A stretch of DNA of 64,000 nucleotides from Verrucomicrobiia bacterium (lineage in GTDB: Bacteria; Verrucomicrobiota; Verrucomicrobiia; Limisphaerales; UBA11358): the NCBI GenBank assembly GCA_036502245.1, contig DASXYX010000024.1, positions 5,130-69,129 of the forward strand. The letters run 5' to 3'. The position numbers were made by a program, and so were the translations under genes. Under the pieces are notes generated by a model. It searched no databases. It worked only from the letters and a program-made list of their open reading frames with translations, and had not been told where the DNA came from. Position 1 is the stretch's first letter. Each line of letters opens with the position of its first letter. Shown piece by piece: positions 39,984 to 59,254 of the stretch.

Positions 39984-40228
39984 CGGCGGCGGCTTTGACG
40001 CTCTTGAAGAACCGGGTTGGACATGCGGTCGGCAGCCCTGACATTTTTTTGCGCTTTCCAGACCTCATCCATGACTTCATGCCAATCAAATTTTTCCGCG
40101 GCTGTCAATGGTTCGATTCGCGCGATGGCGCGGCCATTGCGGGTAATGAGCAATGATTCACCACGCTCAAGCTGGTTCAAAATCACCCTGGTCTCTTGAT
40201 GCAATTGCTTTGCGGTAACTGTGCTCAC
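39980..40228 (-). CDS. Phd/YefM-family antitoxin
   Basis: TVTAKQLH, GESLLITRNGRAIARIEP. Confidence 0.85.
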   Translation of the reverse strand: MSTVTAKQLHQETRVILNQLERGESLLITRNGRAIARIEPLTAAEKFDWHEVMDEVWKAQKNVRAADRMSNPVLQERQSRRR

Positions 40229-40551: not shown

Positions 40552-42414
40552 ATGCCCGATATTGATTTACTGCACGAATACGCCCAATCCGGCTCCGAAC
40601 CGGCTTTCACCGCGTTGGTGGAACGGCATATCGGGTTGGTGTATTCCGCGGCATTGCGGCAGGTGGGCGATGCCCAATTGGCAGACGATATCACCCAGGC
40701 CGTCTTCATTATTTTGGCGAGGAAAGCCGGCAGGTTGCCCCGCGCCACTGTGCTGTCGGGTTGGCTGCTCAGAGCCACCCGCTTTGCCGCAAATGCCCAC
40801 ATCCGCTCCGCCATCCGGCGCACACAACGTGAACACGAGGCTTATATGCAATCCCTCAATGAACCCCATTCCCTGATCTGGGAGCAATTGGCCCCGCTCC
40901 TGGACGAAGCCATGGCCTCCCTGGGCACAACCGACCGCGCGGTGCTGGCGATGCGCTATTTTGAGAACAAAACCGCGCAGGAAATCGGCCAAATGTTGAG
41001 GTTGAACGAACAGGCGGCCCAGAAACGGGCCAATCGCGCGCTCGAAAAGCTTCGGAGCTTCTTCGCCAGGCGCGGGGTCAATTCCTCCGCCGAAACGATC
41101 GGCGAAACCATTTCCGCCCATTCCGTCCAGGTGGTGCCCCTAGCGATGGCCAAATCCGTTGCCGCCGTGGCAGTTGCCAAAGGCGCCGCCGCCTCAGCCT
41201 CAACCCTAACCCTCATCAAAGGAGCATTGAAAATTATGGCCTGGTCAAAAGCAAAATCCACCATCGCGGTCGCGGCCGTGGTGCTTTTAGGAGGCGGAGG
41301 CACAGCTATTGTCACGAAGGAAATAGTTCACGCCGTGCGGGTGGCGCATTATCCGGACATCCAGGGCGCGTGGGAGGGGGTCATGCTCGTTGATTATTAT
41401 CCCGGCGTGGTGAACGGCGAGTCGGCCAAAACCCATGTGGTGATCCATCTGGTCAAAAGATACGGCGTTTATTCAGCGACCGCTGACTTTATCGAGATGG
41501 GCCGAAAGAACGTTCCCATGGCCGGTGTTGTTTATGACTATCCATCGCTGCAGATCCAACAGACGGTGCGGGATGTGTGGAATTTAAAAGTAAATGCGAG
41601 TGCCAGGCAGATGAGGTGGGACCATTATATTCATTTCATTCAACCTGACCCTGTACAGTTGACGCGCACCACCGTACCGGACAAGGTTCCCGACCCGCTG
41701 ATGGAAGAAGATTTCACGCCACGCCACGGCTCCGATTTGCAGGGTTATTGGAAAGGACTATTAGGCGCCGGACCTGATGCGGTGCCAGTGGACCTGAAGA
41801 TTGCCGAGGAACCCGATGGAACATTTCAGGCGGAGGGTGACAACCCCATGGAAGGCGCGGACGGGGAGCCGCTGATCGTCACTTACAAGCGGCCCATGGC
41901 AACTTTTGCGGTGGCGTCAGGCGCCGGTGTGTTTCGCGGCCAGGTCAACGATGACGACACGGAAATCTCGGGCACCTGGGTACAAGGCGGCCAATCTCTC
42001 CCCGCCAGGATCAAGCGCGCCGATTATCAGGCCGAGCATGCGCAGGATGCGGAGAAGAATTACACATACACCTCGAAAGATGATTTGCAGGGACATTGGA
42101 AAGGATCATGGATCCTGACCGTATCAAAATCCAAGGCGACCATGCGCATGGCGCTCGATATTGCCAAACTGCCGGATGGTTCTTATTCCGCCACGATTTC
42201 GAGCGTGGACCAATTCGGATTTGACGCGCCGATACCGGCTTCTGATTTTCAATTTTCTTCGCCGAACGTTCATGCGGAATGGAAATGGGCGGGCGCGGGG
42301 TATGGCGGAGATGTGTCGCCAGGTTATGACGGAAAACTCGAAAACGGCAAACTCGTTGGCACATGGAATCAAAGTGGCGGCAGTTTTAAGCTGGTGTTTG
42401 AAAGACAGAACTAA
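40552..42414 (+). CDS. ECF sigma factor 1 fused to TM helix and three repeated extracytoplasmic beta domains
   Basis: [28 protein letters not shown], sigma4 region; DIQGAWEG / DLQGYWKG / DLQGHWKG repeats. Confidence 0.9.
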
Positions 42415-42431
42415 CTCTAATAACAATAAAT

Positions 42432-42653
42432 ATGAATAAATCGTTTATCCATCTATTGGCTATTGTTTCAGTCCCGTTGCTTTTGACCGGATGCGCAGGC
42501 CCCAACTTGTCTCTCGGCAGCGGATCCAAGACCGTCGTCGAAAAACCCACTCTCGGCCAACAACTCATTGATCTAAAAAAGGCAGAAGACAGCGGAGCAA
42601 TCACACCTTCAGAGTATCAGTCCCAGAAGGACAGACTTCTCCAGGGCAATTAA
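42432..42653 (+). CDS. Small lipoprotein with SHOCT domain
   Basis: LLTGC lipobox; LGQQLIDLKKA.DSGAITPSEYQSQK.RLL. Confidence 0.85.
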   Translation: MNKSFIHLLAIVSVPLLLTGCAGPNLSLGSGSKTVVEKPTLGQQLIDLKKAEDSGAITPSEYQSQKDRLLQGN

Positions 42654-42692
42654 GATGAAACATATCCGTCATGGACGGACTAAGAAGCAAGA

Positions 42693-42881
42693 ATGACAAA
42701 TCATGTTCCATTCCTCATTTGCACTTATGCAGGCTTTCTCCTGTTCAGCCTGTTTCAACAAACGCGATGGCTGCAACGGGTCAAATTCATCGGCTTGATC
42801 GCCCTGTGCGTACGGACCGCATGGTATGTAACGGGAGCGGTCGTCTGGTTTTGGTCGTGGCTTTACCAAAAGATGATATGA
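42693..42881 (+). CDS. Possible small membrane protein
   Basis: 62-aa hydrophobic ORF filling the gap; competing frames exist. Confidence 0.3.
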   Translation: MTNHVPFLICTYAGFLLFSLFQQTRWLQRVKFIGLIALCVRTAWYVTGAVVWFWSWLYQKMI

Positions 42882-42974
42882 TCGCGCCACTGAAAGCGTT
42901 GGTTTGGATGCCCATCCTCGACAACGTGGAATAGCGGATTTGACAGGGATCTGTCTACCGGTAATACTAACGGT

Positions 42975-43238
42975 ATGACCAACGCCAAATTGTTAAGTGT
43001 GAAAGTTCCGATGAGAGTTTTCCAGGCGCTGCCTGGAGCACATAAGGGACGCAGCCGGTTCATCATCGCAGCGTTGGAGGAAAAAATCCAGCGGGGACAG
43101 TCGGAATGGCAACCCACCAGCGAGCGCGGTCGCCGGCTCAAAGCCATTTTAGACAAGGGCGCGGCCGAACGCGGACCATTATTGGATGACGAGGGAATTG
43201 CCCGTGAGCTGCAGGAGCGCCGCGGGAGGTTCCATTGA
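42975..43238 (+). CDS. Putative RHH-type antitoxin
   Basis: LLSVKVP...RSRFIIAALEEK; TTGACA-17-AATACT promoter; overlaps the PIN gene. Confidence 0.75.
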   Translation: MTNAKLLSVKVPMRVFQALPGAHKGRSRFIIAALEEKIQRGQSEWQPTSERGRRLKAILDKGAAERGPLLDDEGIARELQERRGRFH

Positions 43239-43639
43239 AAACGATGCTCGATTCCAGCGTTTTGCTTCAGGCCTGGCGCGGAAATTCACCCCGATCGGCG
43301 GCCGCCAAGGAAATTTTGTCCGACCCGTCGCGTGATTTTGTCACCTGTGAAAACGTACAATTGGAATTGCTTCCCAAACCGGCCTTTGAGAAGCGCCATT
43401 CCGAAGTGGAATTTTACATGGCGCATTTTTCGGAAGCTTCCGCCTGCGAACGATTCAGCGAAGCACTGGGCAAAGCAGCGCTGGCACTGGCCACGCGACA
43501 CGGTTTGTCAGCGGGCGATGCGTTAAACCTGGCGTCCGCCATCAAGCTGGGCGCGAATGAATTCATTACAAGCGAATCGCCGGGCAAGCCGGTGTTCCGC
43601 ACTTCGGGGGTCAAAGTGATTTCGTTGCACTCCCTCTGA
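43235..43639 (+). CDS. PIN-domain (VapC-like) toxin
   Basis: MLDSSVLL, LELLPKP, GL.A.DAL.LA.A, FITSE. Confidence 0.85.
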   Translation: MKTMLDSSVLLQAWRGNSPRSAAAKEILSDPSRDFVTCENVQLELLPKPAFEKRHSEVEFYMAHFSEASACERFSEALGKAALALATRHGLSAGDALNLASAIKLGANEFITSESPGKPVFRTSGVKVISLHSL

Positions 43640-43760
43640 CCGGGGTTACGGGCAGCGTATCAGGACGACAGAAAATTTCGGCCCGCAATTTCTTTCCATC
43701 GGGGTGATCGGAAAAATTATTTCCGGTTTGCGGGCGTAGCGGCAATATACCTGTGAAACC

Positions 43761-45233
43761 ATGCCTGAGCCTGACAATCAGTTGGTCGCCGAATTCAATG
43801 CCCAGCGCAGTGAAACGGCATTCGCCGCCCTGGTGCGACAACACCTGAACATGGTGTTCTCCACCGCGTTGCGGCAGGTGGGCGATGCCGGTGCCGCGGA
43901 GGAGATAGCGCAAAATGTCTTTGTGGCGCTGGCGCAATCGTCGGGCAAATTGGAATCGCACCCAACGATCGCCGGTTGGCTTTACCAGACCACGCTGAAC
44001 AAAGCCCGCGAATGGGTTCGCTCGGAGTTGCGACGGCGGCGGCGCGAGCAAACGGCGGCGGACCTCAACCTGGCGCGTGCGGAAGGCGATTCCCTGTGGT
44101 CGCCGCTGGTTCCCCTGCTCGACGAGGCGCTCCTGCAATTGCATGAAACAGACCGGTCGGCGGTGGTCATGCGTTTCATGGAGGGCCAGACGTACCAGGA
44201 GGTCGGTTCGGCCCTGGACATCAGCGAAGACGCCGCGCGCAAACGCGTCAACCGCTGCCTCGAACAACTTACTCATTTTTTCCAATGTCGCGGCTTCACC
44301 ACGCCCGCTCTCGCGGTCGATGCGCCGCTTTTTGCGCTGGCCATGCATGTCGCGCCCGCTACGTTGGCAGGCCACGCAACCAAAACCGCGTTGGCAACCA
44401 CTCATTCCGCATCTTCAACCCTAACCCTTAAAGGAGCATTGAAACTTATGGCATGGACCAAAGCACATACCACCCTCACCGCCGGCATAGCCGCCCTGTT
44501 CGTCATCGGAGCCACCACTGCGACCGTTGTCACCGTCAAAAAAATCCAGGCGTACGAGGTGGAAAATTACCTCGCGCATTGGGACAAGATGAACCTCAAT
44601 GACGCGCCGTTGCCAAACGTGGCGCTGCTCCGGCCAACCCGCTACCAGAACCAGGGCGATTGGATCCTTATCGGCGGCACGGGACCTGACGACCGGGCTA
44701 TGCGCCGGGACGCCAGCTTTCAGGAAGTCCTCTCAACCGCGTATGGCTTCAGCCCCGAACAAATGGTTTTTAATACCCGGCTGCCACGCGGCGGATTTGA
44801 TATGCTCCTCACCACCCCCAGCAACTCCCGTGAGACGTTGCGCACCGAGATCAAAAAACAGTTCGGTATTGTCGCTCATCCGGAGACACGCGATATGGAT
44901 GTCCTGGTCATGAAAGATGGCAACACCAACGCATCCGGCATCAAGATCAGTGACGGCGGTGGGCCGAACATTTTGGAGGACGCCGGAAGCATCAAACTAC
45001 ACGGCTATACCATGGCTGATATCGCCCATCTGATCGGGACACTTGATCACAAGCCGGTGGTTGATGAAACGGGCCTGACCAACGCTTATGACGTGGATGC
45101 CAGTTGGGATCCCAAACTTCAGGGAAAAGCTTTGCAAAACAAGCTCGATGACATCATCCGTAACCAGTTCGGCCTTCAATTGACGCCGGACACACAGCCG
45201 GTCCAGGTTCTTGTCGTCGAAAAGGCAAAATAA
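43761..45233 (+). CDS. ECF sigma factor 2 fused to TM helix and TIGR03435/DUF3738-like domain
   Basis: Sigma2/sigma4 motifs; PVVDETGLTNAYD, QFGLQL...PVQVLVVEK. Confidence 0.9.
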   Translation: MPEPDNQLVAEFNAQRSETAFAALVRQHLNMVFSTALRQVGDAGAAEEIAQNVFVALAQSSGKLESHPTIAGWLYQTTLNKAREWVRSELRRRRREQTAADLNLARAEGDSLWSPLVPLLDEALLQLHETDRSAVVMRFMEGQTYQEVGSALDISEDAARKRVNRCLEQLTHFFQCRGFTTPALAVDAPLFALAMHVAPATLAGHATKTALATTHSASSTLTLKGALKLMAWTKAHTTLTAGIAALFVIGATTATVVTVKKIQAYEVENYLAHWDKMNLNDAPLPNVALLRPTRYQNQGDWILIGGTGPDDRAMRRDASFQEVLSTAYGFSPEQMVFNTRLPRGGFDMLLTTPSNSRETLRTEIKKQFGIVAHPETRDMDVLVMKDGNTNASGIKISDGGGPNILEDAGSIKLHGYTMADIAHLIGTLDHKPVVDETGLTNAYDVDASWDPKLQGKALQNKLDDIIRNQFGLQLTPDTQPVQVLVVEKAK

Positions 45234-45391
45234 CTGTCACCGTTCCCGCTTCGGCGGACACATATAGGTGTGATAGACAAATTCCGGCCCGGTACCCGTC
45301 TCTCTAAAGGCGGGCTTGTCCCGTTTATAAACTTTCTTTATTTTTGTAACTGTTATCAGAAAACAGTGTTTATATCATAAACACGGAATTT

Positions 45392-46186
45392 ATGACCAAA
45401 ACTCAAATCATTGCATGGGGCAGTGTGAGCGCGGTATTGATCGCGGCGGCTATCGCTGTGAAATTGATCTTTTTTCCGTCTCTCAGTGAGACATACTTCG
45501 CCGTCAGTTCCAGCCGGTTGAGGACCGTGCCTGCGGGATACGTTGTGGTGCGTCCGACCCACTCTGCCGCGCAGAGCCGGACCGCCCAAAATCGCATCGC
45601 TTATGCCACTAAAGGAAGCGAACGGATTGTCGGCGTCAATGTCACCTTTCATACCCTGATTTCGCTGGCTTACAGCCATGATCCGGCGCATATCACGTTG
45701 CCATGGAACGCGCCTACGAATCAAAATTACGACATCCTGGTCACCGCTCCCGGCGATATTTCGCAACACCTGCAAGCGGCCATCCGAAGCAAACTCGGTT
45801 TCGTAGCCGACGTAGAAACCAACGAAGTCGATGTTATGGCATTGAAGATTGAAAATCCAACGGCGCAGATGCAGAACTTCAAGCTCAGTCCGGACATTGA
45901 AAAAGAGAACGAAGACATGAAGAATGGCCGCCTCTATTTCACTCATACGCGGCTGTTAACCATAATGAACGGCCTTGAGCAGATCATCCGAAGCCCCGTG
46001 GTGGACGAGACCGGCCTCACCAATTCCTACGATTTCTCGGTCGCCTGGAGCACCCAACTGGAAAAGCAGTTGCAAGGCGGCACGTTCAGCAAAGATCTCG
46101 GGGCGAAAATCCTGAGCGATTGGGGGCTGGGAATGGAGCCGGACACGGCCCCGATCGCAATGCTCGTTGTAAAGAAGGCGCCCTGA
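45392..46186 (+). CDS. Stand-alone TM + TIGR03435/DUF3738-like protein
   Basis: N-terminal anchor; LISLAY, PVVDETGLTNSYDF, GL.MEP..API.MLVV. Confidence 0.85.
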   Translation: MTKTQIIAWGSVSAVLIAAAIAVKLIFFPSLSETYFAVSSSRLRTVPAGYVVVRPTHSAAQSRTAQNRIAYATKGSERIVGVNVTFHTLISLAYSHDPAHITLPWNAPTNQNYDILVTAPGDISQHLQAAIRSKLGFVADVETNEVDVMALKIENPTAQMQNFKLSPDIEKENEDMKNGRLYFTHTRLLTIMNGLEQIIRSPVVDETGLTNSYDFSVAWSTQLEKQLQGGTFSKDLGAKILSDWGLGMEPDTAPIAMLVVKKAP

Positions 46187-46304
46187 TGCAATCAATTGTC
46201 CTCTTTTGCCATTTTGCGGACATACTGTATAAGGGCATAAAGGCCTGTCATTGAACATAAATAAATATTTTGCGTCAAAATCGATTATATTATCAGCAAC
46301 TCGA

Positions 46305-47090
46305 ATGAACCAAAACCGGACCAATCAAGCCAGCAACCGTAAGGCATCGCCGCCTGGATTCACGTTGATCGAACTATTAGTCGTCATCGCCATCATCGGC
46401 ATCCTGGCAGGGTTGCTCCTGCCCGTCCTGGGGGCAGCCAAACGCCGCGCTGCCCAGGCCGCCTGCATCAATAACCAAAAACAACTCGGCCTGGGCATGA
46501 GAATGTATATTGATGATGCGCACGATACTTTTCCCGGCATGGCCTCCCAGCACAGCGGTTTCCAGACATCTGACTGGATCTATTGGCGCACCAATTCCTC
46601 TTTTCCCCAGGTCCAGCAAAGTCCCATTGTCCTCACGCTGGCCAATACCAGCGCCACTCTGTTCCGCTGCCCCCTGGACAGGGACGATACCGCGCGTTTC
46701 GCCATAGCCGAGAGCGACCCCACCGACGGCCCCTACTTGTACAGTTACAGTCTGACCAGCTATCTGCCCACCACCGACGCCAATGGAAATACTATCAGCC
46801 CGGGAATGTCCTCAAACTTTTCCCAGACACCGCCACTCCCGTTCAAGTTGAACCAGGTTCGCAATCCTTCGGGCAAAATCATGCTCGCCGAAGAAGTGGC
46901 CTCGGAGGGCGGCAGAGATAATCCCACGGGCGCAGGGGTCATCAATGACGGACGCTGGATGCCCCAGAACCCGGACATTTTGACCTCGCGGCATGATGGC
47001 AAGGCCGATGTGGTCTTTGCTGATTTCCACGTCGATCCCGAGACACCGGATTTCGGGGAGGATGTGAACAATTCTCAACCCGATTTATGA
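46305..47090 (+). CDS. Prepilin-type N-methylation / H-X9-DG family protein
   Basis: [43 protein letters not shown]. Confidence 0.9.
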
Positions 47091-47860
47091 ACCTGCATCA
47101 TCAATGCGAACCCCGCATGAGACGTGGATTCACATTGATCGAACTGCTCGTGGTCATCGCCATCATCGGCATCCTCGCCGCGTTGCTCCTGCCCGTCCTG
47201 GGCGCGGCCAAGCGCCGTGCCGCCCAGGCCGCCTGCATCAACAACCTGAAACAACTCGGCACGGGCATGAGGATGTATATTGACGACAACCACGATACTT
47301 TTCCCGGCATGGCCTCCGAGCACAATGGTTTTCAGACTTCTGATTGGATCTATTGGCGAACCAATACTGCTTATCCCCAGGTCCAGCAAAGTCCCATTGT
47401 CCTCACATTGGCCAACACCAGCGCCAGTCTTTTCCGATGCCCGTTGGATAGGGACGACAGCGCGCGGTTTGCCGAGGGCGCGAACGATCCGGCCAATGGC
47501 CCCTACATGTACAGCTACAGTTTGACCAGTTTCGATCCAGGCACCGATGCGAACGGCAATGCCGTTGCCATGGGAATGTCCTCAAATTTTTCAAAAAATC
47601 GCAACCTGCCTTTTAAGCTGGCCGCAGTCCGCAATTCCGCCGGAAAAATCATGCTTGCCGAAGAAGTCGCCTCCGCCGGTGGCAGCGACAATCCCACGGG
47701 CGCAACAGTGATCGATGACGGGCGCTGGATGCCGGCGGAACCTGACCTGCTGACCTCTCGCCACGATGGCAAGGCCGATGTGACCTTCGCCGATTTTCAC
47801 GTCGCCCCAGTCACCCCGGACTTTGCCCAGGACGTAAACAATTCCGAACCGGATTTGTGA
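47087..47860 (+). CDS. Prepilin-type / H-X9-DG family protein, close paralog of 46305-47090
   Basis: [29 protein letters not shown]; long stretches identical to the upstream gene. Confidence 0.9.
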
Positions 47861-48618
47861 ACCCTCGCCGCGCTTTCACCCTGATTGAACTGCTCGTCGT
47901 CATCGCCATCATTGTCATTCTGGCGGCGCTGTTGCTGCCGGCCCTGAACAACGCTAAAAACGATGGCGCCAAAACGACAGATCTCAGTAATTTCCATCAG
48001 ATAATGGCCGCTATTCATATTTACACTACGGATAATCGCGATTCGCTGACGTGGCCCAATTGGGACTATGGCAGGCCGATGCCCAACAAAACGACTCCTC
48101 CCGGCTGGCTTTATGAAATTAATCCTTCCGCCTCCGGTCCTGCCGCTTTTAACGCACAGGCGGGGTTGCTTTGGAACGTCTTGCATGGCGGCAAAATTCT
48201 TCTCTGCCCCATGGACAATCCCACGGAATCCTATCCGCCGGACAAGAATGGAAAAATCACCAGCCGCGCGGAGCAGCTTTCCAGCTACATAATGAACGGA
48301 GCGGTTATTGGCTTCCGAACCGGCTATCGATCTAACGCACCGCCCGTCAAAATTTCCCAGATGAACGCCGGAGATTGCTTGTTCTGGGAGGCGGACGACC
48401 GGATTGCTTTTGCGTTCAATGATGGATCGAGCTGGCCGTTGGAAGGAGTCACCGCGCGCCATGCAAATGGCGCCACCTGGGCCGCCATCGATGGTTCTTC
48501 GAGATATATCCGCGATCTCGATTGGACCAGCGAGGCAAAGGATACTAATAAAAATAGCCTCTGGTGCTTTCCGTTAACGCCCGACGGCGGCGACCGCGTA
48601 TATGGACACGACCGCTGA
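47857..48618 (+). CDS. Prepilin-type / H-X9-DG family protein
   Basis: [31 protein letters not shown] overlap with the previous gene. Confidence 0.88.
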
Positions 48619-48695
48619 CCGGGAGTCCATCTCATTCAGTTTGACCTGCAAAATTAATTGTCTCCTTTTCCCGCCGGTGTCCATTTATTAAGTGG

Positions 48696-50171
48696 ATGAT
48701 GAATGATGACATCGCGCTGGTACGCAAATACGCCGCCAGCCGTTCCGAACAGGCCTTTGAGACACTGGTCACGCGCCATGTCAATCTTGTCTATTCGGCA
48801 GCCATCCGGCAGGTCAACGATGCCCACCTGGCCGAGGACGTCACCCAGGCGGTCTTTGTCATCCTGGCGCGAAAAGCCTCGTCGCTTCCCGCCAAAACCG
48901 TCTTGTCCGGCTGGCTTTACAAAACCGCGCGCTTCGTCGCCGCCGACGCTCTCAAAACCCAACGCCGTCGCGAGCGGCGCGAACAGGAGGCCCATATGGA
49001 ATCTCTCAATGACTCCGTGCAACTCGATTCCGAATGGCAAAAACTCTCTCCCTTCCTCGACGAGGCCATGGCGCATTTGCATGACACAGACCGTAACGCC
49101 GTCGTGTTGCGCTTTTTTGAAGGCCGCAACTTGCAGGAGATCGGCACAGCCCTCGGCTTGAGCGAGGACGCCGCCAAAAAACGCGTCAGCCGCGCCCTTG
49201 AGAAGCTCCGCAAATTTCTCGCCCGCCGCGGCGTCGATTCCACCACCACCGCCATCGGCGAAACCATCGCGGCCAATTCCATCCAGGCCGCCCCCGCAGT
49301 TCTCGCCAAATCCATTACCGCCGTGGCCGTCGTCAAAGGCGCCGCCGCTTCAACCTCAACCTTAACCCTCATCAAAGGAACTCTAAAAATTATGGCATGG
49401 TCCAAAACTCAAACCGCGATTGTCGCCGGCGTGGTTGTGCTCTTCGCAGCCGGAACTGCCACCGTAACCGTTAAACAAATCGAAAAGGCGCACACTTCGG
49501 ACAATGCATGGCGAAATCCAAACATCGATTCGGGCACTGTCGATAAACTGCCGCCAAAACTGGAGATCGCGCCGACAATATTCCCGAAGGGAGGAAATTG
49601 TTCAGCCGGATACGGAAGTCTTAAATGTGTCGGAATCGACCAATCGGTCGCCAACCTCATCAACTATGCCTATGACTGGCCGCAAGCCCGGATGGTTTTT
49701 CCCGGCGGCCAGCAACCACAGGAGAAATACGATTTCGTTGCCACCCTCCCCCAAGGAAACCGCGAAGCCTTGAAAGACGAATTGAAGAACAGATTGGGGT
49801 GGGTCGGACATCCTGAAACCAGAAACGAAGACGCCCTGCTGCTCGTAACAGTCAATGCAAACGCTCCCGGATTACACCCACCGACAAAGGGGAATTATTC
49901 CTACATGAACGGGAATGGGAATCGAATGAAAATCACCTGGGCAAATGAACCCATCTCTACAATAGATTTTTTCCTCCAGGGCAGCTCGCCTATGCCGATC
50001 ATCGATGAAACTCACGACACTAAACATTATAACGTCGATCTCAAATGGACCGAAGACCTGGCGGACCCAGAACATACCGCCCTGCAAAAGGTCATGCGAG
50101 AGCAACTCGGTCTCGTGCTGGTTCCCACCAATATGCCCATCGATATGCTCGTCGTCGAAAAAGTGAAGTGA
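48696..50171 (+). CDS. ECF sigma factor 3 fused to TM helix and TIGR03435-like domain
   Basis: Sigma2/sigma4 motifs; PIIDET...Y...L.W, EQLGL.LVP...P..MLVVEK. Confidence 0.9.
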
Positions 50172-50249
50172 TCTCCGCCTGGATGATTCCCAAAGTCACC
50201 TTTAAAAATAGTTGTCTGCCGTCCGGTCATGGCGGCAATAATACTATGA

Positions 50250-51806
50250 ATGCAAGATTTTCAGGACACGGACTTGTTGCGCAGCTATGCCCGGCATAAT
50301 TCGGAAGCCGCCTTTTCAGAATTAGTGCGCCGGCACATCGGCCTGGTCTATTCCGCCGCCCTTCGCCAGGTCAACAACCCGGCGCAGGCTGAAGAGATCA
50401 CCCAGGCGGTCTTCATTATCCTTGCCCGTAAAGCCGCTCTCCTGCGTTCAAATGTTGTTCTGGATGGCTGGCTCTATGAAACCACACGATTCACCGCCTT
50501 AAGCGCGCTTCGCGCCGAACGGCGGCGGCTATTCCGCGAACAGGAGGCTTTTATGCGATCCAACATGGATGAGACCGATGCTCCCTTGCTTTGGAACCAA
50601 CTGGCTCCATTGTTGGAGGAAGCCATAGCGCGGCTCGGCAAAACAGATCGCGATGCCCTGGTCCTGCGTTTTTTTAAAGGTAAAAGCGTGCGCGAAGTCG
50701 CCACGGTGATAAACATGACCGAAGCGGCGGCGCAACGGCGCATCCTCCGCGCCCTCGAGAAACTCCGTAAGTTTCTCGCCCGGCGCGGAATCAATTCCAC
50801 CGCCGGCGCCATCGGCGAAACCATCGCCGCCAACTCCATTCAGGCCGCGCCCATCGCCCTGGCCAAATCTGTGACTGCCGTAGCCGTTGCCAAAGGCGCG
50901 GCCGGTTCCGCATCAACTTTAACCCTCATCAAAGGAGCATTGAAACTTATGGCATGGACTAAAACTCGAACCACCATCGTAACCACCGCAATCGTGTTGC
51001 TGATGGCAGCCGGAACCACTGCAACCGTCAAAGATGTTGAATACCACCAATACGCCCGAAAATATTATACCTGGCAGGTCCGACAGGCGGATTTCGGCGT
51101 TTTCTACAAAGCCTTGCCACAGATCTCAATCCTGCCCACCCGGTTCGAAGGTGATACCAATGGCGGTTGGTGCGCAGACGGCAGCAGAGGCGCTATGGGC
51201 ATTGACCAGCCGATCAAAGAAATGGCCGAAGTTGCTTACCAGCAGGATGACCTGCACACCGTTGCGATCTCCGGTCTGCCGACCAACCGGTATGATTTTC
51301 TGGCGAAATTGGTCGGCCCCATGGTTCAACATCAAAATTTTCCTCAAAATGAGAAATGGGCCGGTGAATTTCAAAAAGCCATCGCCAAACAGCTTGGAGT
51401 CACTGGCCGGTTTGAAATGCGAAACACAGACGTTTGGCTTCTGAGGCCTGTTCCCGCCGGGGTTCACGGTTTCAAAACCAGCCATGGCATGCCGGGCGGC
51501 ATAGCGGTTAAATCCATCCATCAGGCAGGTCCGACGAGTATCACGGTTGGCAATGAATACCACGAGCAACCCGTCAGCACATTCATGTATATGCTTCAAT
51601 TCAACCTCAAGCAAACGGTCGTTGATGATACGGGTTTGACCAATTCTTACGATTTTTCTTTCACCTGGACACAAGACAAGGACGTGCGTGGCATGCCTTT
51701 GCCGGACATTGACGAACTAAATCCATTGCTCACCGATCAACTTGGCCTCGAACTCGTCTCCACCAATATGCCCGTCCGAATGCTCGTCGTCGAAAAGGTG
51801 AAATAA
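50250..51806 (+). CDS. ECF sigma factor 4 fused to TM helix and TIGR03435-like domain
   Basis: Sigma2/sigma4 motifs; VVDDTGLTNSYDF, DQLGLELV. Confidence 0.9.
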   Translation: MQDFQDTDLLRSYARHNSEAAFSELVRRHIGLVYSAALRQVNNPAQAEEITQAVFIILARKAALLRSNVVLDGWLYETTRFTALSALRAERRRLFREQEAFMRSNMDETDAPLLWNQLAPLLEEAIARLGKTDRDALVLRFFKGKSVREVATVINMTEAAAQRRILRALEKLRKFLARRGINSTAGAIGETIAANSIQAAPIALAKSVTAVAVAKGAAGSASTLTLIKGALKLMAWTKTRTTIVTTAIVLLMAAGTTATVKDVEYHQYARKYYTWQVRQADFGVFYKALPQISILPTRFEGDTNGGWCADGSRGAMGIDQPIKEMAEVAYQQDDLHTVAISGLPTNRYDFLAKLVGPMVQHQNFPQNEKWAGEFQKAIAKQLGVTGRFEMRNTDVWLLRPVPAGVHGFKTSHGMPGGIAVKSIHQAGPTSITVGNEYHEQPVSTFMYMLQFNLKQTVVDDTGLTNSYDFSFTWTQDKDVRGMPLPDIDELNPLLTDQLGLELVSTNMPVRMLVVEKVK

Positions 51807-51852
51807 ACATTTTCTTTGTCCCGTTTTGGGGTTCATGGACATCATGGGGTAA

Positions 51853-53319
51853 ATGCCAGAACAGGACGACCATCAATTGCTCGCCGATTTTGCCCGTAGC
51901 GGTTCGGAAACCGCTTTTTCCGAACTGGTACGCCGGTATATCGCCCTTGTCTATTCCACCGCGCTCCGGTTCACCAGCAATCCCCATCACGCGGAGGAGA
52001 TCGCCCAGGCCGTGTTTGTCATTCTCGCGCAGAAAGCCGGCACATTGTCGTCGCGCGTCATCCTCTCCGGCTGGCTGTACCAGACGGCGCGGCTGACTGC
52101 GGCTAATTTTGTGAAAGGTGAAATCCGGCGCGCACACCGCGAACAGGAGGTCTATATGCAATCCATCCTACCCGACCCTGAACTCGCCGACTGGAACAAA
52201 ATTGCCCCGCTGCTCGATGAAGCCATGGGCAGCCTCGGCGAAACCGATCGCAATGCCCTCGTCCTGCGCTTCTTTGAAAATTGCACTTCGGCGGAGATCG
52301 GCGCGGCGTTGCGGATGAACGAAGAAACCGCCCGCAAACGCGTGAATCGCGCCCTGGATAAACTGCGAAAAATTTTCAGCGCTCATGGCGTGAGTTCCAC
52401 GGCGGAAGCCGTCGCAGGAGCTATCGCCGCTAATTCCCTTCAGGTGGTGCCCGCATCCGTTGCCCAATCAGTGACCGCCGCAGCCGTCGTCAAAGGCACA
52501 GCCGTTTCAACCTCAACCCTAACCCTCATCAAAGGAACTCTAAAAATTATGGCATGGTCCAAAACTCAAACCGTCATTGTCGCCGGTGTCATTGTGCTGC
52601 TCGCGGCCGGAACTACTACCGCAACCGTTAAGCACATTCAAACCGTGCGGCTGCATGAAAATCTCTGGCGATACCCGGACATCAATTCAATGAGCCTGGC
52701 TAAAGTGCCGCCGGCGGTGGACATCCTGCCGACCATTTTCCCCAAAGGCGGCAATTCGGCATCGACCGACCGGAAATACGTCGGGATCGATCAATCAGTC
52801 GTCAACATCGTCGCCGATGCCTACAATTGGCCGCAGGCCAGGATTGTTTTCACCGATGGTCAGCCGCCCGAAAGATACGATTACATCGCCAGTCTCCTGA
52901 ACGGATCCCGCGAAGCGTTGCAGGACCAATTGAAGAAAAAATTAGGACTGGTGGCGCATCCTGAAATGAGAAACGAAGATGTCGTGCTGCTCGAAATGCA
53001 GAATCCTCACGCGCCGGGCCTTCACCCGCCGGTGGCAGGAACCACCAGCGATATGACCATGAATGGCAACCAAATCGAATTATCGTGGCAAAACAGGTCC
53101 ATCTCCAGCATGGCGGATCGTCTCCAAATGGCTTCCCCCCTGCCCATCATTGATGAGACGCATAGCACAAAACATTATAGCATCGATATTACCTGGCAGG
53201 AGGACCCGCAGGACCCGGAACATACCGCGCTGCAAAAAGTCCTGCGCGAGCAACTCGGCCTGATATTTGTTCCCACCAACATGCCCGTGAAAATGCTCGT
53301 CGTTGAAAAGGTGAAATAA
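51853..53319 (+). CDS. ECF sigma factor 5 fused to TM helix and TIGR03435-like domain
   Basis: Sigma2/sigma4 motifs; C-half closely similar to ECF 3. Confidence 0.9.
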   Translation: MPEQDDHQLLADFARSGSETAFSELVRRYIALVYSTALRFTSNPHHAEEIAQAVFVILAQKAGTLSSRVILSGWLYQTARLTAANFVKGEIRRAHREQEVYMQSILPDPELADWNKIAPLLDEAMGSLGETDRNALVLRFFENCTSAEIGAALRMNEETARKRVNRALDKLRKIFSAHGVSSTAEAVAGAIAANSLQVVPASVAQSVTAAAVVKGTAVSTSTLTLIKGTLKIMAWSKTQTVIVAGVIVLLAAGTTTATVKHIQTVRLHENLWRYPDINSMSLAKVPPAVDILPTIFPKGGNSASTDRKYVGIDQSVVNIVADAYNWPQARIVFTDGQPPERYDYIASLLNGSREALQDQLKKKLGLVAHPEMRNEDVVLLEMQNPHAPGLHPPVAGTTSDMTMNGNQIELSWQNRSISSMADRLQMASPLPIIDETHSTKHYSIDITWQEDPQDPEHTALQKVLREQLGLIFVPTNMPVKMLVVEKVK

Positions 53320-53340
53320 TTTACCTTCTCATGTCTGATA

Positions 53341-54132
53341 ATGGCGGACATAACGAGGAAGATAATGACATGGCCACAGCAGGGGCATACAATCGCCGTC
53401 AAACAAAACGGCTGTATGCAATCCGTTCATTTCAATTCCCGATCTATCCTACAATTCCTGGGGATGATTGCCTTTGTTTGGTTTTCCACACCCTTGTTTG
53501 CCGTAGCGGGGCAGATTTATCTCGGCCCGGGAAATTCAGGCGACTCCAGCGGCGGCTCGGACTGGCTCACCGGGGCCAATGGCGGAGGAGTCACTACCCT
53601 GGATTGGGATGACCCGCCGACCACCGGCAGCTTTGATTTCAGCATCAGCAATGCCGTGGCCGGCAAAGGCAACAATGGAGATTGGCGCTGCCCGCCCTTT
53701 TCGCTCGGACCCGCCGCCAGTGGCGCAAGGTCCCTTACATTTTCTTTCGCGTATAAGCTTGTGAGCCCCGTAGCCAAAGGAAATAATATCTACGTGCAGT
53801 TGCGCTTTTTCGATGCCACCGGAACCAATTTTATTTCCCAAATTGTCCTGCCCCTCGGCGCGCACACCGCCGATTCACAAATGGCCGACTACAAAACACG
53901 CACTATCGAGAATATTCCCGTCCCTCGTAGAGCGCGAACGGCGGACATCTGGATTGACGCCAATATCTTCGAACCGTGGGTATCGGGCGTCGCGCGCTTT
54001 GGTAATTTCTCTGTCACTACCGTACCACGCTCACTGGCATTCAAAGCGGGTGTCGCCTTTGGCGTTCTCTTCAGCTTCGGCGCTTTGATCTGGATTTCAG
54101 CGTATTTCTGGCAGCGATCCAGGCCGTCGTGA
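53341..54132 (+). CDS. Hypothetical exported protein with C-terminal TM anchor (possible carbohydrate-binding beta sandwich)
   Basis: Signal-like segment after M at 53416, [11 protein letters not shown]-terminal hydrophobic helix; start uncertain. Confidence 0.7.
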
Positions 54133-54989
54133 TTATGAAACGTTCCGGAGCCTTCACATTGATTGAATTGCTGGTGACCATTGCCATCATCGCTATCCTT
54201 GCCGCCCTGCTCCTCCCGGTCCTGAACCGCTCCAAACAAAAGGCCTGGCAAGCCGATTGCCTGAACAACATACGTCAACTCCAATTGGGTTGGCTGACTT
54301 ATGCCAACGATTCCAACGATCATGTACCCTACAACTCTTCCGGTGATAACGCCGGCCAGACTCCTGAAAATCCAGGTTGGGTCGCCGGAGACATGTACCT
54401 GGATTGCGATGCAGGCCAGGACCTGACCCAAAGCACCAACACTCAATTCCTTGTCGGACCTCAATATGCACAATTTGGCTCCATCGGCGGCTATGTCAAA
54501 AATCCGACCGTCTATCACTGTCCGGCGGATATGAGCACGGTGACCATCGGAGGTGAGAAGTTGCCGCGGGTGCGGAGCATGTCCATGAACAATTACATGG
54601 GGGCGATGGAATTGCCGGGCTTTCGCTATTTCATGAAATTGCAGGAAATCACCGCGCCCGGCCCAAGCGATGCCTGGGTCTTCATGGATGAACGCGCCGA
54701 TTCCATCAATGACGGTTTGTTCGCCGTGGACGCTGCATCGCAATACGCCATCATCGATTATCCTTCGTGCTATCACGATCGCGGCTCATCCATCTCCTTC
54801 GCCGATGGCCATGTCGAATATCATCACTGGATCGAACCAACCACCGACCCGCCGATGGATGTCAGCCAGCATCTTCCCGGCGGGTCCAAGCTGACTTCGC
54901 CCAATGACCGTGATATGCAATGGCTTGTCTTGCATACCACCAGCAAAACGCCTGATAAGCCCTCGGTTCATTCCAGGTCGCATAAATAA
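54129..54989 (+). CDS. Prepilin-type / H-X9-DG family protein
   Basis: [40 protein letters not shown]. Confidence 0.9.
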
Positions 54990-55070
54990 TTTCTTACTCC
55001 CTCTCCCTTCGGCGTAAGTCTCTCATATTTCAGTTGAGTTACCCGGCATAAGTCCCATCATTCAAGGGCT

Positions 55071-55559
55071 ATGACGAATAGCGATTCGGAAGATACCCTG
55101 GTCATCCTCAAACCCGACTCTTTCTGGCGCAAATTGGACACGCAAGTCGTCAACCGCATAAAATCCCTGGGACTAAAAGTCACCGCCGAACGTGTCCTCC
55201 AGGGCAGCGAGAATCTTTCTGAACCAAAATGGCGCGAATTTTATTTTCCCTCCATCGGCAGCCGCCCACCGTGCCTGGAGGGAACCTCAAAATACATGGC
55301 CCATGGCCCGGTGCAGGTCATCCAGTTGCACGGTGCGAATGCCATCCAAACAGTCCGCACAGCCATTGGCGCGACTTTTCCATCCAAAGCGGCGCCGGGC
55401 ACCATTCGCGGTGATTTTTGGCCCGGCGCCACCGAAGCCAACGCGCCCTATCGCCTCAAATTCCAACAACCCGGTGACGACCAATTCCTTTTCAATATGA
55501 TCCATGCCTCGGATTCCCCACAAAGTTTTGCAAGAGAGATCCAGTTCTTTAAATTTTAA
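55071..55559 (+). CDS. ndk: Nucleoside-diphosphate kinase (divergent)
   Basis: TLVILKPD, GP, VR..IGAT.P..A.PGTIRGDF, NMIHASDS. Confidence 0.85.
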   Translation: MTNSDSEDTLVILKPDSFWRKLDTQVVNRIKSLGLKVTAERVLQGSENLSEPKWREFYFPSIGSRPPCLEGTSKYMAHGPVQVIQLHGANAIQTVRTAIGATFPSKAAPGTIRGDFWPGATEANAPYRLKFQQPGDDQFLFNMIHASDSPQSFAREIQFFKF

Positions 55560-55602
55560 AATATCCTGTTACCTTTCCCATTCCGCGTAAATATATGGGT
55601 AA

Positions 55603-57045
55603 ATGAACGACGATTTAGCGCTGCTGCGCGAATATGCCCGGAACGGTTCGGAACCGGCCTTTGCCGCGCTTGTTGGGCGGCATATTCATCTCGTCTATTC
55701 CGTGGCGTTTCGTCAAACACAGGACGCCCATCTCGCCGAGGAGATCACCCAGGCCGTTTTCATCATTCTCGCGCGCAAAGCTGGGTCGCTTGGCGATAAG
55801 ACCGTTTTGAGCGGCTGGCTTTGCCGAACTGCCCGCTATGCCGCCGCCAATGCTCTCAAAATCCAGACGCGCCGCCAGCACCGTGAACAGGAGGCTTATA
55901 TGCAATCCACTTTGAACGAACCCGCCCCCGATGAAACCTGGCATCAGATTTCCCCCCTGCTCGACGACGCCATGCGCAAGCTTGGGCAAAAAGACCACGA
56001 TGCCCTCGTCCTGCGATATTTTGAGAACCGCAATTTTGCCGAAGTCGGCGCCACCCTTGGCGCCAGCGAAGACGCCGCCAAAATGCGCGTAAGCCGCGCG
56101 CTGGAAAAACTACGGCAATTTTTCGCCAAACGCGGTGCCTCATCCACCACTGAATCCATCGCTGAAAACATCTCCCATCATTCCATTCAATTCGCGCCCG
56201 AAGCCTTGGTCGTCACTGTCTCCGCCACTGTTGCCAAAGGGTCAACCGCCGCAGCCTCCACCCTTACCCTTGTGAAATCAACCCTTAAGATTATGACTTA
56301 CGCAAAGCTTAAACTATCCCTGGGCATCGCCGCCGCCATCCTGCTCACTGCCGGAGCTGCGACCGTCGCAATTTCCCAAATCGATGCGGATCAAATTCGC
56401 GATTCCTTGACGCCGCAACAAATAATTCAAAAGTCACAAGACGCCTACACCTCCCTTTCCAGTTACAGCGACAACGGAGAAGTCGTTTCCGCCGTGAATG
56501 GCATGACCCTGACAAACTTTTTTACCATCAAACTGGCACGACGGGATTTATATCGTGTTCATACCGAATCGGTTTCAGGGGGCTTCACAAATTCAGAGAC
56601 GACCTGGTCAGGGAATGACGGAGATTATATGCAGATGAACAATGGCCAGGTATTTCGGCGAAATGACGGGCTTTGGGGCGCGGGTGGGCAGGTTCCGGCT
56701 ATTCCGGGCACCTTTTTCAAAACTCCTTGGGGTAATCAACTGGGCCTGCCTGTATCGGGTGAAAAACAGGAAACAGATGCAAGAACCGGTGATACGGACT
56801 GTTATGTTTTCGTTAATACACTCGGTGGAACAACAAGAACGTTATGGATCGGCAAAAAAGATTTTTTGATTCGCCAAATACAAAATATATCCGATCCAGA
56901 AGCTGTAAAAGCTGCGCTCGAACACGCTGCAAAAGTCACCGGCAAACCCGCTCCCAAGCTGCCTCCTGGAAGCATCACGTCAACCGAGACCCACGAAAAC
57001 ATCGTATTAAACAAAAAGTTGTCACTCCCGGATTTTCAGCAGTAA
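55603..57045 (+). CDS. ECF sigma factor 6 fused to TM helix and LolA-like/DUF2092-like domain
   Basis: Sigma2/sigma4 motifs; AY.SL.SY.D.G, F.IKLAR..LYR, TLWIGK.DFLIRQ; domain call by eye. Confidence 0.85.
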   Translation: MNDDLALLREYARNGSEPAFAALVGRHIHLVYSVAFRQTQDAHLAEEITQAVFIILARKAGSLGDKTVLSGWLCRTARYAAANALKIQTRRQHREQEAYMQSTLNEPAPDETWHQISPLLDDAMRKLGQKDHDALVLRYFENRNFAEVGATLGASEDAAKMRVSRALEKLRQFFAKRGASSTTESIAENISHHSIQFAPEALVVTVSATVAKGSTAAASTLTLVKSTLKIMTYAKLKLSLGIAAAILLTAGAATVAISQIDADQIRDSLTPQQIIQKSQDAYTSLSSYSDNGEVVSAVNGMTLTNFFTIKLARRDLYRVHTESVSGGFTNSETTWSGNDGDYMQMNNGQVFRRNDGLWGAGGQVPAIPGTFFKTPWGNQLGLPVSGEKQETDARTGDTDCYVFVNTLGGTTRTLWIGKKDFLIRQIQNISDPEAVKAALEHAAKVTGKPAPKLPPGSITSTETHENIVLNKKLSLPDFQQ

Positions 57046-57097
57046 TGATCTTAAATAAACTGTCGGATTTTCGCGGCTGGCGCACACTTATGGGTGA

Positions 57098-59254
57098 ATG
57101 CAGCCCATGGATGATAACGCCCTCTTAAGGCAGTTTATCGAAGAAAAATCGGATGATGCCTTTGCCGCTCTCGTGAAGCGGCACATCCATTTTGTCTATT
57201 CCATTGCGTTGCGCCAGACCGCTCACCCGCAGATGGCCGAGGAAATCACCCAGGCGGCGTTCATTATCCTCGCGCGCAAAGCCGCCGGTCTGCGCCATGA
57301 AAAGGCGCTTTCCAGTTGGCTCTTCCAAACAACTCGTCTCACGGCCAATAATTTGTTGCGCAGCGAAATCCGGCGGCAGAATCGCGAACAGGAGGCTTTT
57401 ATGCAATCCGCTTTGAATGAACCTGAGAATGCGTCCTGGCAGCAAATCGCTCCGTTGCTCGACGAGGCGGTGGCGGCCATGCGCGAAAAGGATCGCCGGG
57501 CAATCCTCCTGCGGTTTTATGAAGGGAAAAATTTGCGCGACGTCGGCGCCGCATTGGGCACGAATGAAGACGCGGCGCAAAAGCGAGTTGAGCGCGCCCT
57601 GGAAAAACTCCGGACATTTTTCACAAAGCGTGGAATCCGCTCCACCGCCACGACGATCACCGAAGCCATCTCCGCCAATTCCCTTCAACTCGCGCCTGAA
57701 ATGCTTATTGCCACAATCGCTTCATCCACCGTCAAAGGATCGACGACTGCGGCATCCACCCTCTCCCTTGTGAAAACGACCCTCAAGCTTATGACCTACG
57801 CAAAAATTAAATTGTCCCTGGGCATCGCGGGCGCCATTCTGCTCGTCGCCGGAACTGCGACCGTCGCCATTTCCCAGATCAACAACGGCCAGACAGCCAG
57901 TCCTTTGACGCCCTATCAAACCAATATTCAAACACAGAAACCCGACGTCCCGGTTGTCGCCGACGGTGATAACGCGCAAATCGTAGCCGACCCGAACGAC
58001 ACGGCCATTGCCACCGGCTTCACGAACAACTTGAATTCGGACGATAAAGAACGGAATACGGCGTTGCAAAGGGCGTTCGACCAATTTCCATTGTTCACGC
58101 CCAGCACGAATGCCGACGGCCAACTGGATTTTCAAACTCTTCCACTGGCTGATCCTGTCGTGATCAATCACGAGCGGTTTTTTGGTTTTCGTTTCACGGT
58201 ACCCGCGCGCGCTCATCACGAAGATTTGGTCTGGGGATTCGCCCTGCCCGGTGACTTAAAGGAATGGTATATCGTTCCTCAGACCGGTTCCATGGAAGGT
58301 TTTGAAAATTATAACTTCACGTCAAAAGGCGATTATCTGCGGGAAAAACCACTCCTGCCCATGAACGCCAACAGGTTGATTTTACAACATCTCGCCGGCG
58401 ATCGTTTGAAGGATGGCCAGACCTATCTCATCTGGTTCGGGTTTGGAAATTACAACGCACCCGGCATGTCAGTGATCTTTACGTTCACCAACTTCGACGC
58501 AAACCCGCCGCATCCCATTATCAGTTTCGAGCGAGCGCTCGCTTTGAATGAACTGGACAGTAAGCCTGTGGTCAACCCTGCAAATCACCACACCTATATG
58601 CTCCTGCGGCCGACAAATTGGCAGCGCGCCGAAAAACTCGCCGAACAACTTGGCGGCCATCTGGCCACCGTTCGCAATCAGGCGGAGGAGGATTGGATCT
58701 TCGATACTTTCGGGCACTACGGCGGTTGCCGGCGATCGTTGTGGATCGGCCTGAACGACCTGGACAAGCGTTTTCATTTCAGTTGGGCCGGTGGCGAGTC
58801 CGCCTCATACACCGACTGGGCTCCTTATGAACCGAATAACGCCGGACCGCGGGGTGAGGATTATGTCGCCATTTATTATCCAGGCCATGCCCATGCCAAT
58901 GAATGGAGAGTCTGGAACAGTCGGCGTCGTGACCCGGGTGGCCCGCCAATGGATGGTGTCGTGGAAATCATTCCAAATACCGCCACATCATCGGCTCCGG
59001 TCGTGCCTGTTGCCAATACCGCGCCGGTGCAAATCCTTCCCAATGTCACCGTTACCAGCACCAGTGGCAGCATCGAGTTGGCGTGGCCGCTCTCCGCTGC
59101 CGGATACATATTGGAAGCCACCACCAATCTGTCGCAGCCCTTTGCCGAATTTGGTTATTCTGAGGAAACAAACACCCAGGACGGCGTCATCTACGTGAAC
59201 ATCACCAATCCCGCGCCGCAAATGTTCTTCAAACTAAAAGAAATCCAGCCCTGA
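57098..59254 (+). CDS. ECF sigma factor 7 fused to TM helix, unknown domain, C-type lectin domain and C-terminal extension
   Basis: W..AE..A..LGGHLATV....E..WI, WIGLND, YTDWAPYEPNN, EDYV; tail LAWP....YILEATTNL...FFKL. Confidence 0.88.
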   Translation: MQPMDDNALLRQFIEEKSDDAFAALVKRHIHFVYSIALRQTAHPQMAEEITQAAFIILARKAAGLRHEKALSSWLFQTTRLTANNLLRSEIRRQNREQEAFMQSALNEPENASWQQIAPLLDEAVAAMREKDRRAILLRFYEGKNLRDVGAALGTNEDAAQKRVERALEKLRTFFTKRGIRSTATTITEAISANSLQLAPEMLIATIASSTVKGSTTAASTLSLVKTTLKLMTYAKIKLSLGIAGAILLVAGTATVAISQINNGQTASPLTPYQTNIQTQKPDVPVVADGDNAQIVADPNDTAIATGFTNNLNSDDKERNTALQRAFDQFPLFTPSTNADGQLDFQTLPLADPVVINHERFFGFRFTVPARAHHEDLVWGFALPGDLKEWYIVPQTGSMEGFENYNFTSKGDYLREKPLLPMNANRLILQHLAGDRLKDGQTYLIWFGFGNYNAPGMSVIFTFTNFDANPPHPIISFERALALNELDSKPVVNPANHHTYMLLRPTNWQRAEKLAEQLGGHLATVRNQAEEDWIFDTFGHYGGCRRSLWIGLNDLDKRFHFSWAGGESASYTDWAPYEPNNAGPRGEDYVAIYYPGHAHANEWRVWNSRRRDPGGPPMDGVVEIIPNTATSSAPVVPVANTAPVQILPNVTVTSTSGSIELAWPLSAAGYILEATTNLSQPFAEFGYSEETNTQDGVIYVNITNPAPQMFFKLKEIQP

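Follow-up and report, generated by a model that had tools for sequence, protein, structure and literature searches.

A conserved start-like ATG between the sigma and sensor modules points to internal translation in membrane-anchored ECF sigma factor genes of Verrucomicrobia

What keeps sigma factors of the extracytoplasmic function (ECF) group inactive when they carry large membrane-anchored extensions, and how they become active, is an open question in the Planctomycete family, as far as the available parts of its descriptions go (PMC7671368; ECF57 entry of PMC7826278). The question arises again in a 64,000-nucleotide stretch of a Verrucomicrobiia genome (GCA_036502245.1, contig DASXYX010000024.1; hereafter the window), in which seven genes fuse an ECF sigma factor (domains sigma2 and sigma4), through a linker and a predicted transmembrane (TM) segment, to a variable sensor. 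In every one of them an in-frame ATG precedes the TM segment. An earlier note on this DNA had proposed that the sensor module is also translated separately from this ATG, that each gene may yield up to three nested isoforms, and that the junction may serve as a recombination hinge. Our analysis, based on sequence and predicted structure, indicates that the junction probably initiates translation and yields the TM-plus-sensor half as a separate protein. The seven genes are the following.

40552..42414, plus strand: ECF1, sigma2-sigma4-linker-TM-sensor, the sensor without a Pfam family, 620 aa (domain search).
43761..45233, plus strand: ECF2, sigma-TM-DUF3738, 490 aa, Met missing at a first internal site described below (domain search).
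48696..50171, plus strand: ECF3, sigma-TM-DUF3738, 491 aa (domain search, AlphaFold).
50250..51806, plus strand: ECF4, sigma-TM-DUF3738, 518 aa (domain search).
51853..53319, plus strand: ECF5, sigma-TM-DUF3738, 488 aa, its module common with ECF3 from the junction on.
55603..57045, plus strand: ECF6, sigma-TM-sensor, the sensor without a Pfam family, 480 aa (domain search).
57098..59254, plus strand: ECF7, sigma-TM-sensor with a C-type lectin domain, 718 aa (domain search).

In all seven proteins the Pfam domains sigma2 (PF04542) and sigma4 (PF04545/PF08281) score above cut-off and lie within residues 20-175, followed by roughly 55 residues of linker, then a hydrophobic stretch and the variable C-terminal part (four proteins with DUF3738, one with a C-type lectin domain, two without a Pfam family); TIGR02937 likewise scores above cut-off. 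The sigma3 family is absent from the domain matches of all seven, which are ECF (group 4) sigma factors by their possession of sigma2 and sigma4 without sigma3. A fold search with residues 2-196 returned SigW as top match (Z 11.2, rmsd 7.7, 158 residues aligned), and a sequence search of the sensor against solved structures gave no match. AlphaFold placed sigma2 of ECF3 at residues 4-97, sigma4 at 112-177 and two linker helices at 184-220, with low confidence at 220-258; at the predicted TM segment it gave low confidence and no full helix. The genome encodes 17 paralogs of this ECF-TM-sensor type, and one Singulisphaera genome holds 87 copies. Named records of similar proteins, together with the DUF3738 clusters, place the host of the window genes on the side of Verrucomicrobiota.

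The junctions between linker and TM segment, with or without a Shine-Dalgarno (SD) sequence, were located as follows.

41200..41238, plus strand: ECF1 junction, A/C-rich block, AAAGGAG at 41218-41224, ATG at 41236, predicted internal start.
44415..44450, plus strand: ECF2 junction, AAAGGAG at 44430-44436, ATG at 44448.
49356..49394, plus strand: ECF3 junction, AAAGGAA at 49374-49380, ATG at 49392 (M233), predicted 259-aa isoform.
50913..50951, plus strand: ECF4 junction, AAAGGAG at 50931-50937, ATG at 50949.
52513..52551, plus strand: ECF5 junction, AAAGGAA at 52531-52537, ATG at 52549.
56257..56295, plus strand: ECF6 junction without SD, ATG at 56293.
57755..57793, plus strand: ECF7 junction without SD, ATG at 57791, the weakest of the seven.

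The in-frame ATGs listed in the earlier note are all present, at residues 229-234 of their open reading frames (ORFs), and most of what it had read from the letters holds. In ECF1-ECF5 an AAAGGAR is placed 11 nt ahead of the ATG, ATT or CTT directly precedes the ATG in all seven genes, and the five-gene block does use A/T-ending codons, with a G+C content at third codon positions (GC3) of 0.25-0.42 at the junction against 0.66-0.73 in the sigma parts of the same genes. Junction GC3 is 0.50 in ECF6 and 0.75 in ECF7, whose third positions are therefore not AT-shifted. The block of ECF2 is one codon shorter than the others. The hydrophobic helix reported after the junction Met is borne out by hydropathy, the most hydrophobic 19-residue stretch beginning 8-11 residues downstream in all seven proteins (peak 1.8-2.2).

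To what extent the junction is conserved was assessed with 129 of 235 matches, drawn from 30 genomes. Met occupies the junction column in 116 of these homologs; two carry GTG-encoded Val instead, seven have a Met within a few codons, and four have none. Codon choice at -13 to +8, counted from the junction Met, deviates from the background of the same genes far more than anywhere else, as seen in the frequencies of TCA (0.77 at the junction, 0.05 in the background), TTA (0.69, 0.02), GGA (0.95, 0.13), GCA (0.86, 0.08) and ATT (0.93, 0.37). Controls for amino acid context gave a similar picture: Gly-5 is GGA in 94/97 homologs against 30/195 for other Gly following Lys, and TTA is used in 59/78 cases at the junction against 4/43 in other Thr-Leu-Thr contexts. 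Synonymous sites, which the earlier note had proposed to check, are highly alike at the junction and close to saturated on either side of it. For amino acids shared among the five window genes, same-codon identity is 0.81 at the junction compared with 0.44 in sigma2, 0.46 in sigma4 and 0.46 in the TM segment; thus, recent duplication is ruled out as the cause of the junction conservation. Between genomes with less than 50% sigma identity, the corresponding values are 0.65 at the junction and 0.46, 0.43 and 0.31 in sigma2, sigma4 and TM segment. Furthermore, on a tree of the sigma part, Gly-5, Lys-6 and Lys-2 show the fewest synonymous changes among 7 Gly and 9 Lys columns. The nucleotide-level constraint is limited to about -39 to +24.

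A programmed frameshift or overlapping ORF was considered and rejected. Only 19/119 genes have a +1 frame without stops across the linker, and the -1 frame, open in 98/116 against 44.5 expected from plain synonymous shuffles, is closed in three of the seven window genes. With sequence context taken into account, -1-frame stops are about two-fold depleted in linker codons -60 to -13 (21 of 529 opportunities, against 8-12% genome-wide for Ala, Thr, Val and Ser).

Does the junction resemble genuine start sites? A start model was built from 251 unambiguous starts taken from the same genome, whose upstream regions are A/T-rich with rare SDs; according to the available part of PMC10783764, SD scarcity is known in some Verrucomicrobia. 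The 16S tail of the genome is canonical. TT precedes the ATG in 16.7% of the 251 starts and in 1.9% of internal ATGs, and TTATG, which the earlier note had taken as a mark of real starts in the window, is found at 2841, 9949, 31553 (minus strand), 10589 and 45392. All seven junctions score above 99.29% of internal ATGs, between the 42nd and 81st percentile of real starts, while a control, another conserved Met within sigma4, exceeded the 95th percentile in 0/70 cases. The start score lies above that of the gene's own synonymous shuffles in 113/116 native junctions and, in the window, in six of seven at p<=0.015. Moreover, folding at -21 to +18 is -3.0 kcal/mol at the junction, -3.7 at real starts and -8.1 at internal ATGs. 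In the local folding-energy comparison proposed by the earlier note, junction folding was weaker than that of synonymous shuffles in 108/116 homologs, and the large gap to shuffles was restricted to -60 to +39 (50 sampled genes).

Related features extend to more distant bacteria. In a set of 42 homologs from other orders and classes of Verrucomicrobia, a Met picked by a rule favouring a following Lys lies 49-72 residues past sigma4 in 39 (chance 0.39), although the preceding residues are unrelated. Folding is weaker than in shuffles in 35 of these 39, the Phe preceding the Met is TTT in 13/16 cases against a 36% background, and AAAGGAG occurs at exactly 11 nt in two genomes of other classes. 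L098 and L099, from another class, again show the A/C-rich block upstream together with AGGAG, here separated from the ATG by 14 nt, past the usual SD spacing. Among Planctomycete ECF57-type genes (71 aligned, 67 after four truncated rows were dropped), an ATG stands at the junction column in 43/67 and at or near it in 52/67. Gly-5 is GGA in 15/25 genes with the Met and 3/10 without it, against 11.5% in the background, and folding is weaker than in shuffles in 35/43 genes with the Met and in 6/15 without.

A further line of evidence comes from a gene that lies between ECF2 and ECF3.

45392..46186, plus strand: free-standing TM + DUF3738 gene, homolog of the predicted short isoform and member of an old standalone clade (domain search, tree).

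As the earlier note had recognised, this gene is the TM-DUF3738 module by itself. Its family, fused forms included, has matches in 60 of 121 genus genomes, and 28 standalone genes form one well-supported clade, in which 10 carry W at position 3 (MAW, MKW or MNW) and 19 lack any other in-frame start upstream. In two members (L451, L452), junction-like DNA immediately precedes the ATG, with no sigma gene upstream. Three other loci (L471, L475, L476) are nested among fused modules and have kept the junction block while losing the sigma part. Because standalone homologs begin at the junction Met, independent genes appear to start in this ATG context, and cells keep proteins that consist of the sensor half only. 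The internal-start reading passed all the computational tests, among them the refuting test set by the earlier note, namely equal conservation of junction and flanks.

Several variants of the sensor genes deserve mention on their own. In L475, the sigma gene has apparently shrunk to an 8-codon ORF ending at a TAA within the junction block, upstream of an intact 263-aa sensor gene. In L478 and L479, a sensor nested among ECF4-type fused modules lacks sigma and has a new, classic-looking signal peptide. Linker frameshifts part sigma from sensor in seven loci (L465, L466, L467, L469, L470, L472 and L477, with an ATGA overlap in L466), and a short frame lies upstream in 8 of 130 metagenome matches; natural split sigma/sensor operons were considered as support and dropped, since these cases may be assembly errors.

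A number of results weigh against an internal start at the junction. The homologs were selected for protein similarity over a region with the junction in it, and they are mutually related, so the counts represent strong contrasts, not exact p-values, and the training set of the start model was chosen heuristically. ECF6 and ECF7 have no SD before the junction ATG, and the start score of ECF7 is not distinguishable from that of its own shuffles (p=0.09). The 11-nt spacing, described as long in the earlier note, is indeed off the mode of this genome: where an SD is present, most AAAGGA motifs are separated from the ATG by 5-7 nt, and that of the junction by 12. (For native GGAG in Singulisphaera, the most frequent spacing is 7-10, and a tail of the distribution extends to 11-12.) Rare codons are favoured at Ser-12 and Leu-10, yet these sites do not change slowly on the sigma tree. 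L471 and L476 resemble deletion remnants, and L475 has lost its SD. In Planctomycetes, SD strength is unrelated to the Met (30/43 with it, 11/15 without), and the Met is often replaced by Leu (CTG/CTC codons), which suggests a constraint at the protein level too.

Some of these points favour a different explanation, in which an amphipathic helix or protease site requires the Met, elongating ribosomes are slowed by the SD-like motif before the TM segment to help folding or membrane targeting, and no second protein is made. SD-like sequences are linked to ribosome pausing, and the long spacing, the Planctomycete Met-to-Leu changes, an SD signal independent of the Met there, and a short AlphaFold helix at 232-238 (low confidence) would all fit. 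We consider this quite unlikely, given what it leaves unexplained: the A-ending codons at +1 to +8 and the low folding across the ATG, the two ATG-to-GTG changes, the SD-less junctions of other orders, the way folding tracks the Met in Planctomycetes, and standalone genes that begin at the junction Met. The block might instead be an internal promoter, an RNA-processing site or a protein-binding site, whose short transcript could feed the same ATG, as in rpn genes, where an internal promoter accompanies the internal start (10.1101/2023.05.02.539157, available portion). Its upstream A/C-rich part (-36 to -19) is more specific than low folding needs; by eye, however, it is unlike the TGT[CT]...CAT motif found before ECF genes and unlike the TAnnnT words enriched at starts. 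A conserved hairpin over the SD, suggested by single-sequence folds, was discarded when the consensus fold of 114 junctions proved empty, with no compensatory change, and a CsrA site was dropped because the 92%-complete genome has no CsrA match. A promoter, processing or protein-binding role on this evidence is very unlikely.

The remaining alternative concerns the history of the junction. Two paralog pairs are more alike from the junction on: between ECF3 and ECF5, likeness is 48-77% within the sigma part and 79-95% once codon -20 is reached, and the identity of ECF6 and ECF7 climbs to 78-83% from codon -20. This profile would be expected from a gene-capture relic, in which sigma cassettes were fused to downstream genes together with their start regions and homogenised by exchange between paralogs, no initiation occurring today; a capture model has been published for Planctomycete ECFs, to judge from the available part of PMC7671368, and standalone and fused modules were interconverted at least four times on the tree. 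Such a relic is nonetheless unlikely: constraint persists between genomes with near-saturated flanks, other orders differ in sequence and still keep the Met and low folding, and one junction serves unrelated sensors. Nor does the genome contain orphan junction copies, all 12 nhmmer matches (E<0.001) being ECF junctions, and in 122 of 130 metagenome matches the frame runs on upstream without a stop for 215 codons or to the locus end. Of the recombination hinge proposed in the earlier note, the greater likeness of the two paralog pairs stands and a dedicated element does not. Module exchange through ordinary homology is likely and a site-specific system is not indicated by these sequences; a shufflon or orphan-cassette system was rejected, as extra copies of the site before silent cassettes were not found in the genome (nhmmer). 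The hinge role looks like a by-product of homology.

If the junction is a start, is it the only internal one? A further candidate lies after sigma2, at the following positions.

40837..40848, plus strand: ECF1 first internal site, weakened, GAGG-N5-ATG, ATG at 40846.
48985..48998, plus strand: ECF3 first internal site, AGGAGG-N5-ATG, M101.
50542..50555, plus strand: ECF4 first internal site, AGGAGG-N5-ATG.
52145..52158, plus strand: ECF5 first internal site, AGGAGG-N5-ATG.
55889..55902, plus strand: ECF6 first internal site, AGGAGG-N5-ATG.
57390..57403, plus strand: ECF7 first internal site, AGGAGG-N5-ATG.

The three nested isoforms proposed in the earlier note are supported by AGGAGG-N5-ATG in 89 of 109 Met-bearing homologs. 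Five window genes have the complete site, ECF2 (43761) lacking the Met and ECF1 (40552) having just GAGG. The site falls at the sigma2/sigma4 boundary in the AlphaFold model. It reads CAG-GAG in most homologs, compared with 27/134 other Gln-Glu pairs; Glu-155 shows 3 changes in 112 on the sigma tree, and the SD is stronger than in shuffles in 103/109. Speaking against this second start, the site is not less folded than shuffles (52/109), its start score only borders on those of real starts, and in this region of the Planctomycete alignment no column has a Met in more than 11/71 rows.

Upstream of the full-length ECF genes, a TGT[CT]-N~17-CAT motif with paralog-specific variants was found, for example before ECF3.

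48659..48695, plus strand: predicted promoter of ECF3, of the ECF type, with TGTC 37 nt upstream of the ATG (from conservation).

In 27 of 43 genes parsed by the pattern (of 129), the ATG lies 36-38 nt after the motif start, from which we infer that the full-length ECF mRNA is leaderless or very short-leadered. Similar promoter-like motifs lie before standalone gene 45392 (about 45233-45280) and before a run of prepilin genes (46177-46225); the sequences suggest that gene 45392 and the prepilin run are regulon members.

We propose that small amounts of the full-length sigma factor would be made from the leaderless transcript, held at the membrane and released through intramembrane proteolysis, as for the Pseudomonas protein IutY discussed below. 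The short isoform initiated at the junction would have the same anchor and sensor without sigma, and would therefore compete for ligand, partner or protease, raising the activation threshold and damping sigma activation. Translation from the likely start behind sigma2 would produce a protein of sigma4, linker, TM segment and sensor that is incapable of promoter melting, and the conserved block would provide homology for sensor-module exchange between paralogs. That the short isoform acts as such a decoy or buffer is put forward tentatively, at somewhat less than an even chance. Broader still, and rather doubtful, is the view that the hundreds of membrane-tethered ECF genes of Verrucomicrobia and Planctomycetes are three-in-one regulators encoding their own matched antagonists: a weakly translated leaderless full-length sigma, a sigma4-anchor-sensor and an anchor-sensor would share one frame, and the antagonists would stay matched through sensor swaps at the junction because they are encoded inside the gene. 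Sigma-factor control of this kind would be missing from the current ECF classification.

Other genes and features of the array were also recorded. Four prepilin-type N-methylation genes, three with DUF1559, are scattered within it (46251-48618 and 54129-54989), and similar genes lie upstream of several standalone sensor genes in relatives. Two PIN-domain genes (39555-40200, minus strand; 42972-43639, plus strand), each with a small upstream ORF, resemble VapBC toxin-antitoxin pairs, and a nucleoside diphosphate kinase-like gene occupies 55071-55559. The DUF3738 proteins ECF2-5 and 45392 end in a conserved LVVEK(V/A)K-like strand, speculatively a possible protease-recognition or fold-completing element.

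Our literature search, whose scope left out the founding papers on Planctomycete ECFs (Jogler 2012, Wiegand 2020), found no description of internal starts in such genes; nothing was found for DUF3738/TIGR03435 or for Pedosphaera combined with ECF. If the proposed internal start is real, internal translation would join the known modes of ECF regulation. It would account for an extension that starts like the N-terminus of a secreted protein, and would show free-standing sensor genes arising by sigma loss. A conserved internal start is also cheaply testable: two or three synonymous changes should abolish the short form and leave the long form unaltered.

Four known systems invite comparison. ECF57 (PMC7826278, as far as its available text goes) comprises an ECF core with a C-terminal extension bearing TM helices, many paralogs and a proposed release from the membrane. 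The window proteins have such a TM-bearing extension, as judged by the hydropathy peak, and sampled Planctomycete members share the same Met and, five codons before it, the Gly encoded by GGA. ECF57 is, in that text, restricted to Planctomycetes and marked by a conserved Cys pair, in many cases also by WD40 repeats; the pair (sigma2, sigma4) is present in 100% and 87% of our Planctomycete set, whereas no conserved Cys column exists among the 129 homologs of the window genes, and the window proteins have neither the pair nor WD40. They are not classed as ECF57, as they lack the Cys pair. An internal start is not mentioned in the available ECF57 entry, which also gives no conserved promoter, while the window genes have a promoter motif; similarly, the part of PMC7671368 at hand explains Planctomycete extensions by downstream-gene capture, leaves their function open and mentions no internal start.

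IutY of Pseudomonas putida, an ECF243 sigma/anti-sigma hybrid described in the available parts of PMC5411451 and PMC8999054 as released by Prc and RseP, resembles the window proteins in uniting a cytosolic sigma, a single TM segment and a periplasmic domain in one polypeptide, and an RseP homolog is encoded in this genome. The domain of IutY is of the FecR type, in contrast to the DUF3738, C-type lectin or Pfam-less sensors of the window; no FecR family match was obtained at E<=0.01 in the seven proteins, which, without a FecR domain, are not classed as IutY-type. In the accessible text of PMC5411451, the words 'internal' and 'start codon' are absent.

Internal starts are known from genes of other kinds. 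In the accessible part of 10.1101/2023.05.02.539157, Rpn proteins have a conserved N-terminal active domain and a variable C-terminal part that is also made from an in-frame internal start with its own ribosome-binding site; there, experiment has shown a soluble nuclease toxin, a small antitoxin and an internal promoter, whereas the window genes would encode a membrane sensor of 250-490 aa and have two predicted internal starts. In Cas10d/Cas11d (10.1101/2020.04.18.045682, available text), the C-terminal part of one gene is likewise made separately from an in-frame internal start; its product is required as a subunit of a CRISPR complex, unlike the window product, a predicted regulator of a transcription factor. 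The window junctions have the mark of such genes within genes, namely a conserved in-frame putative start in an initiation-like context. By analogy, the system may be best described as internal translation of the Rpn and Cas10d kind set within an architecture like those of IutY and ECF57.

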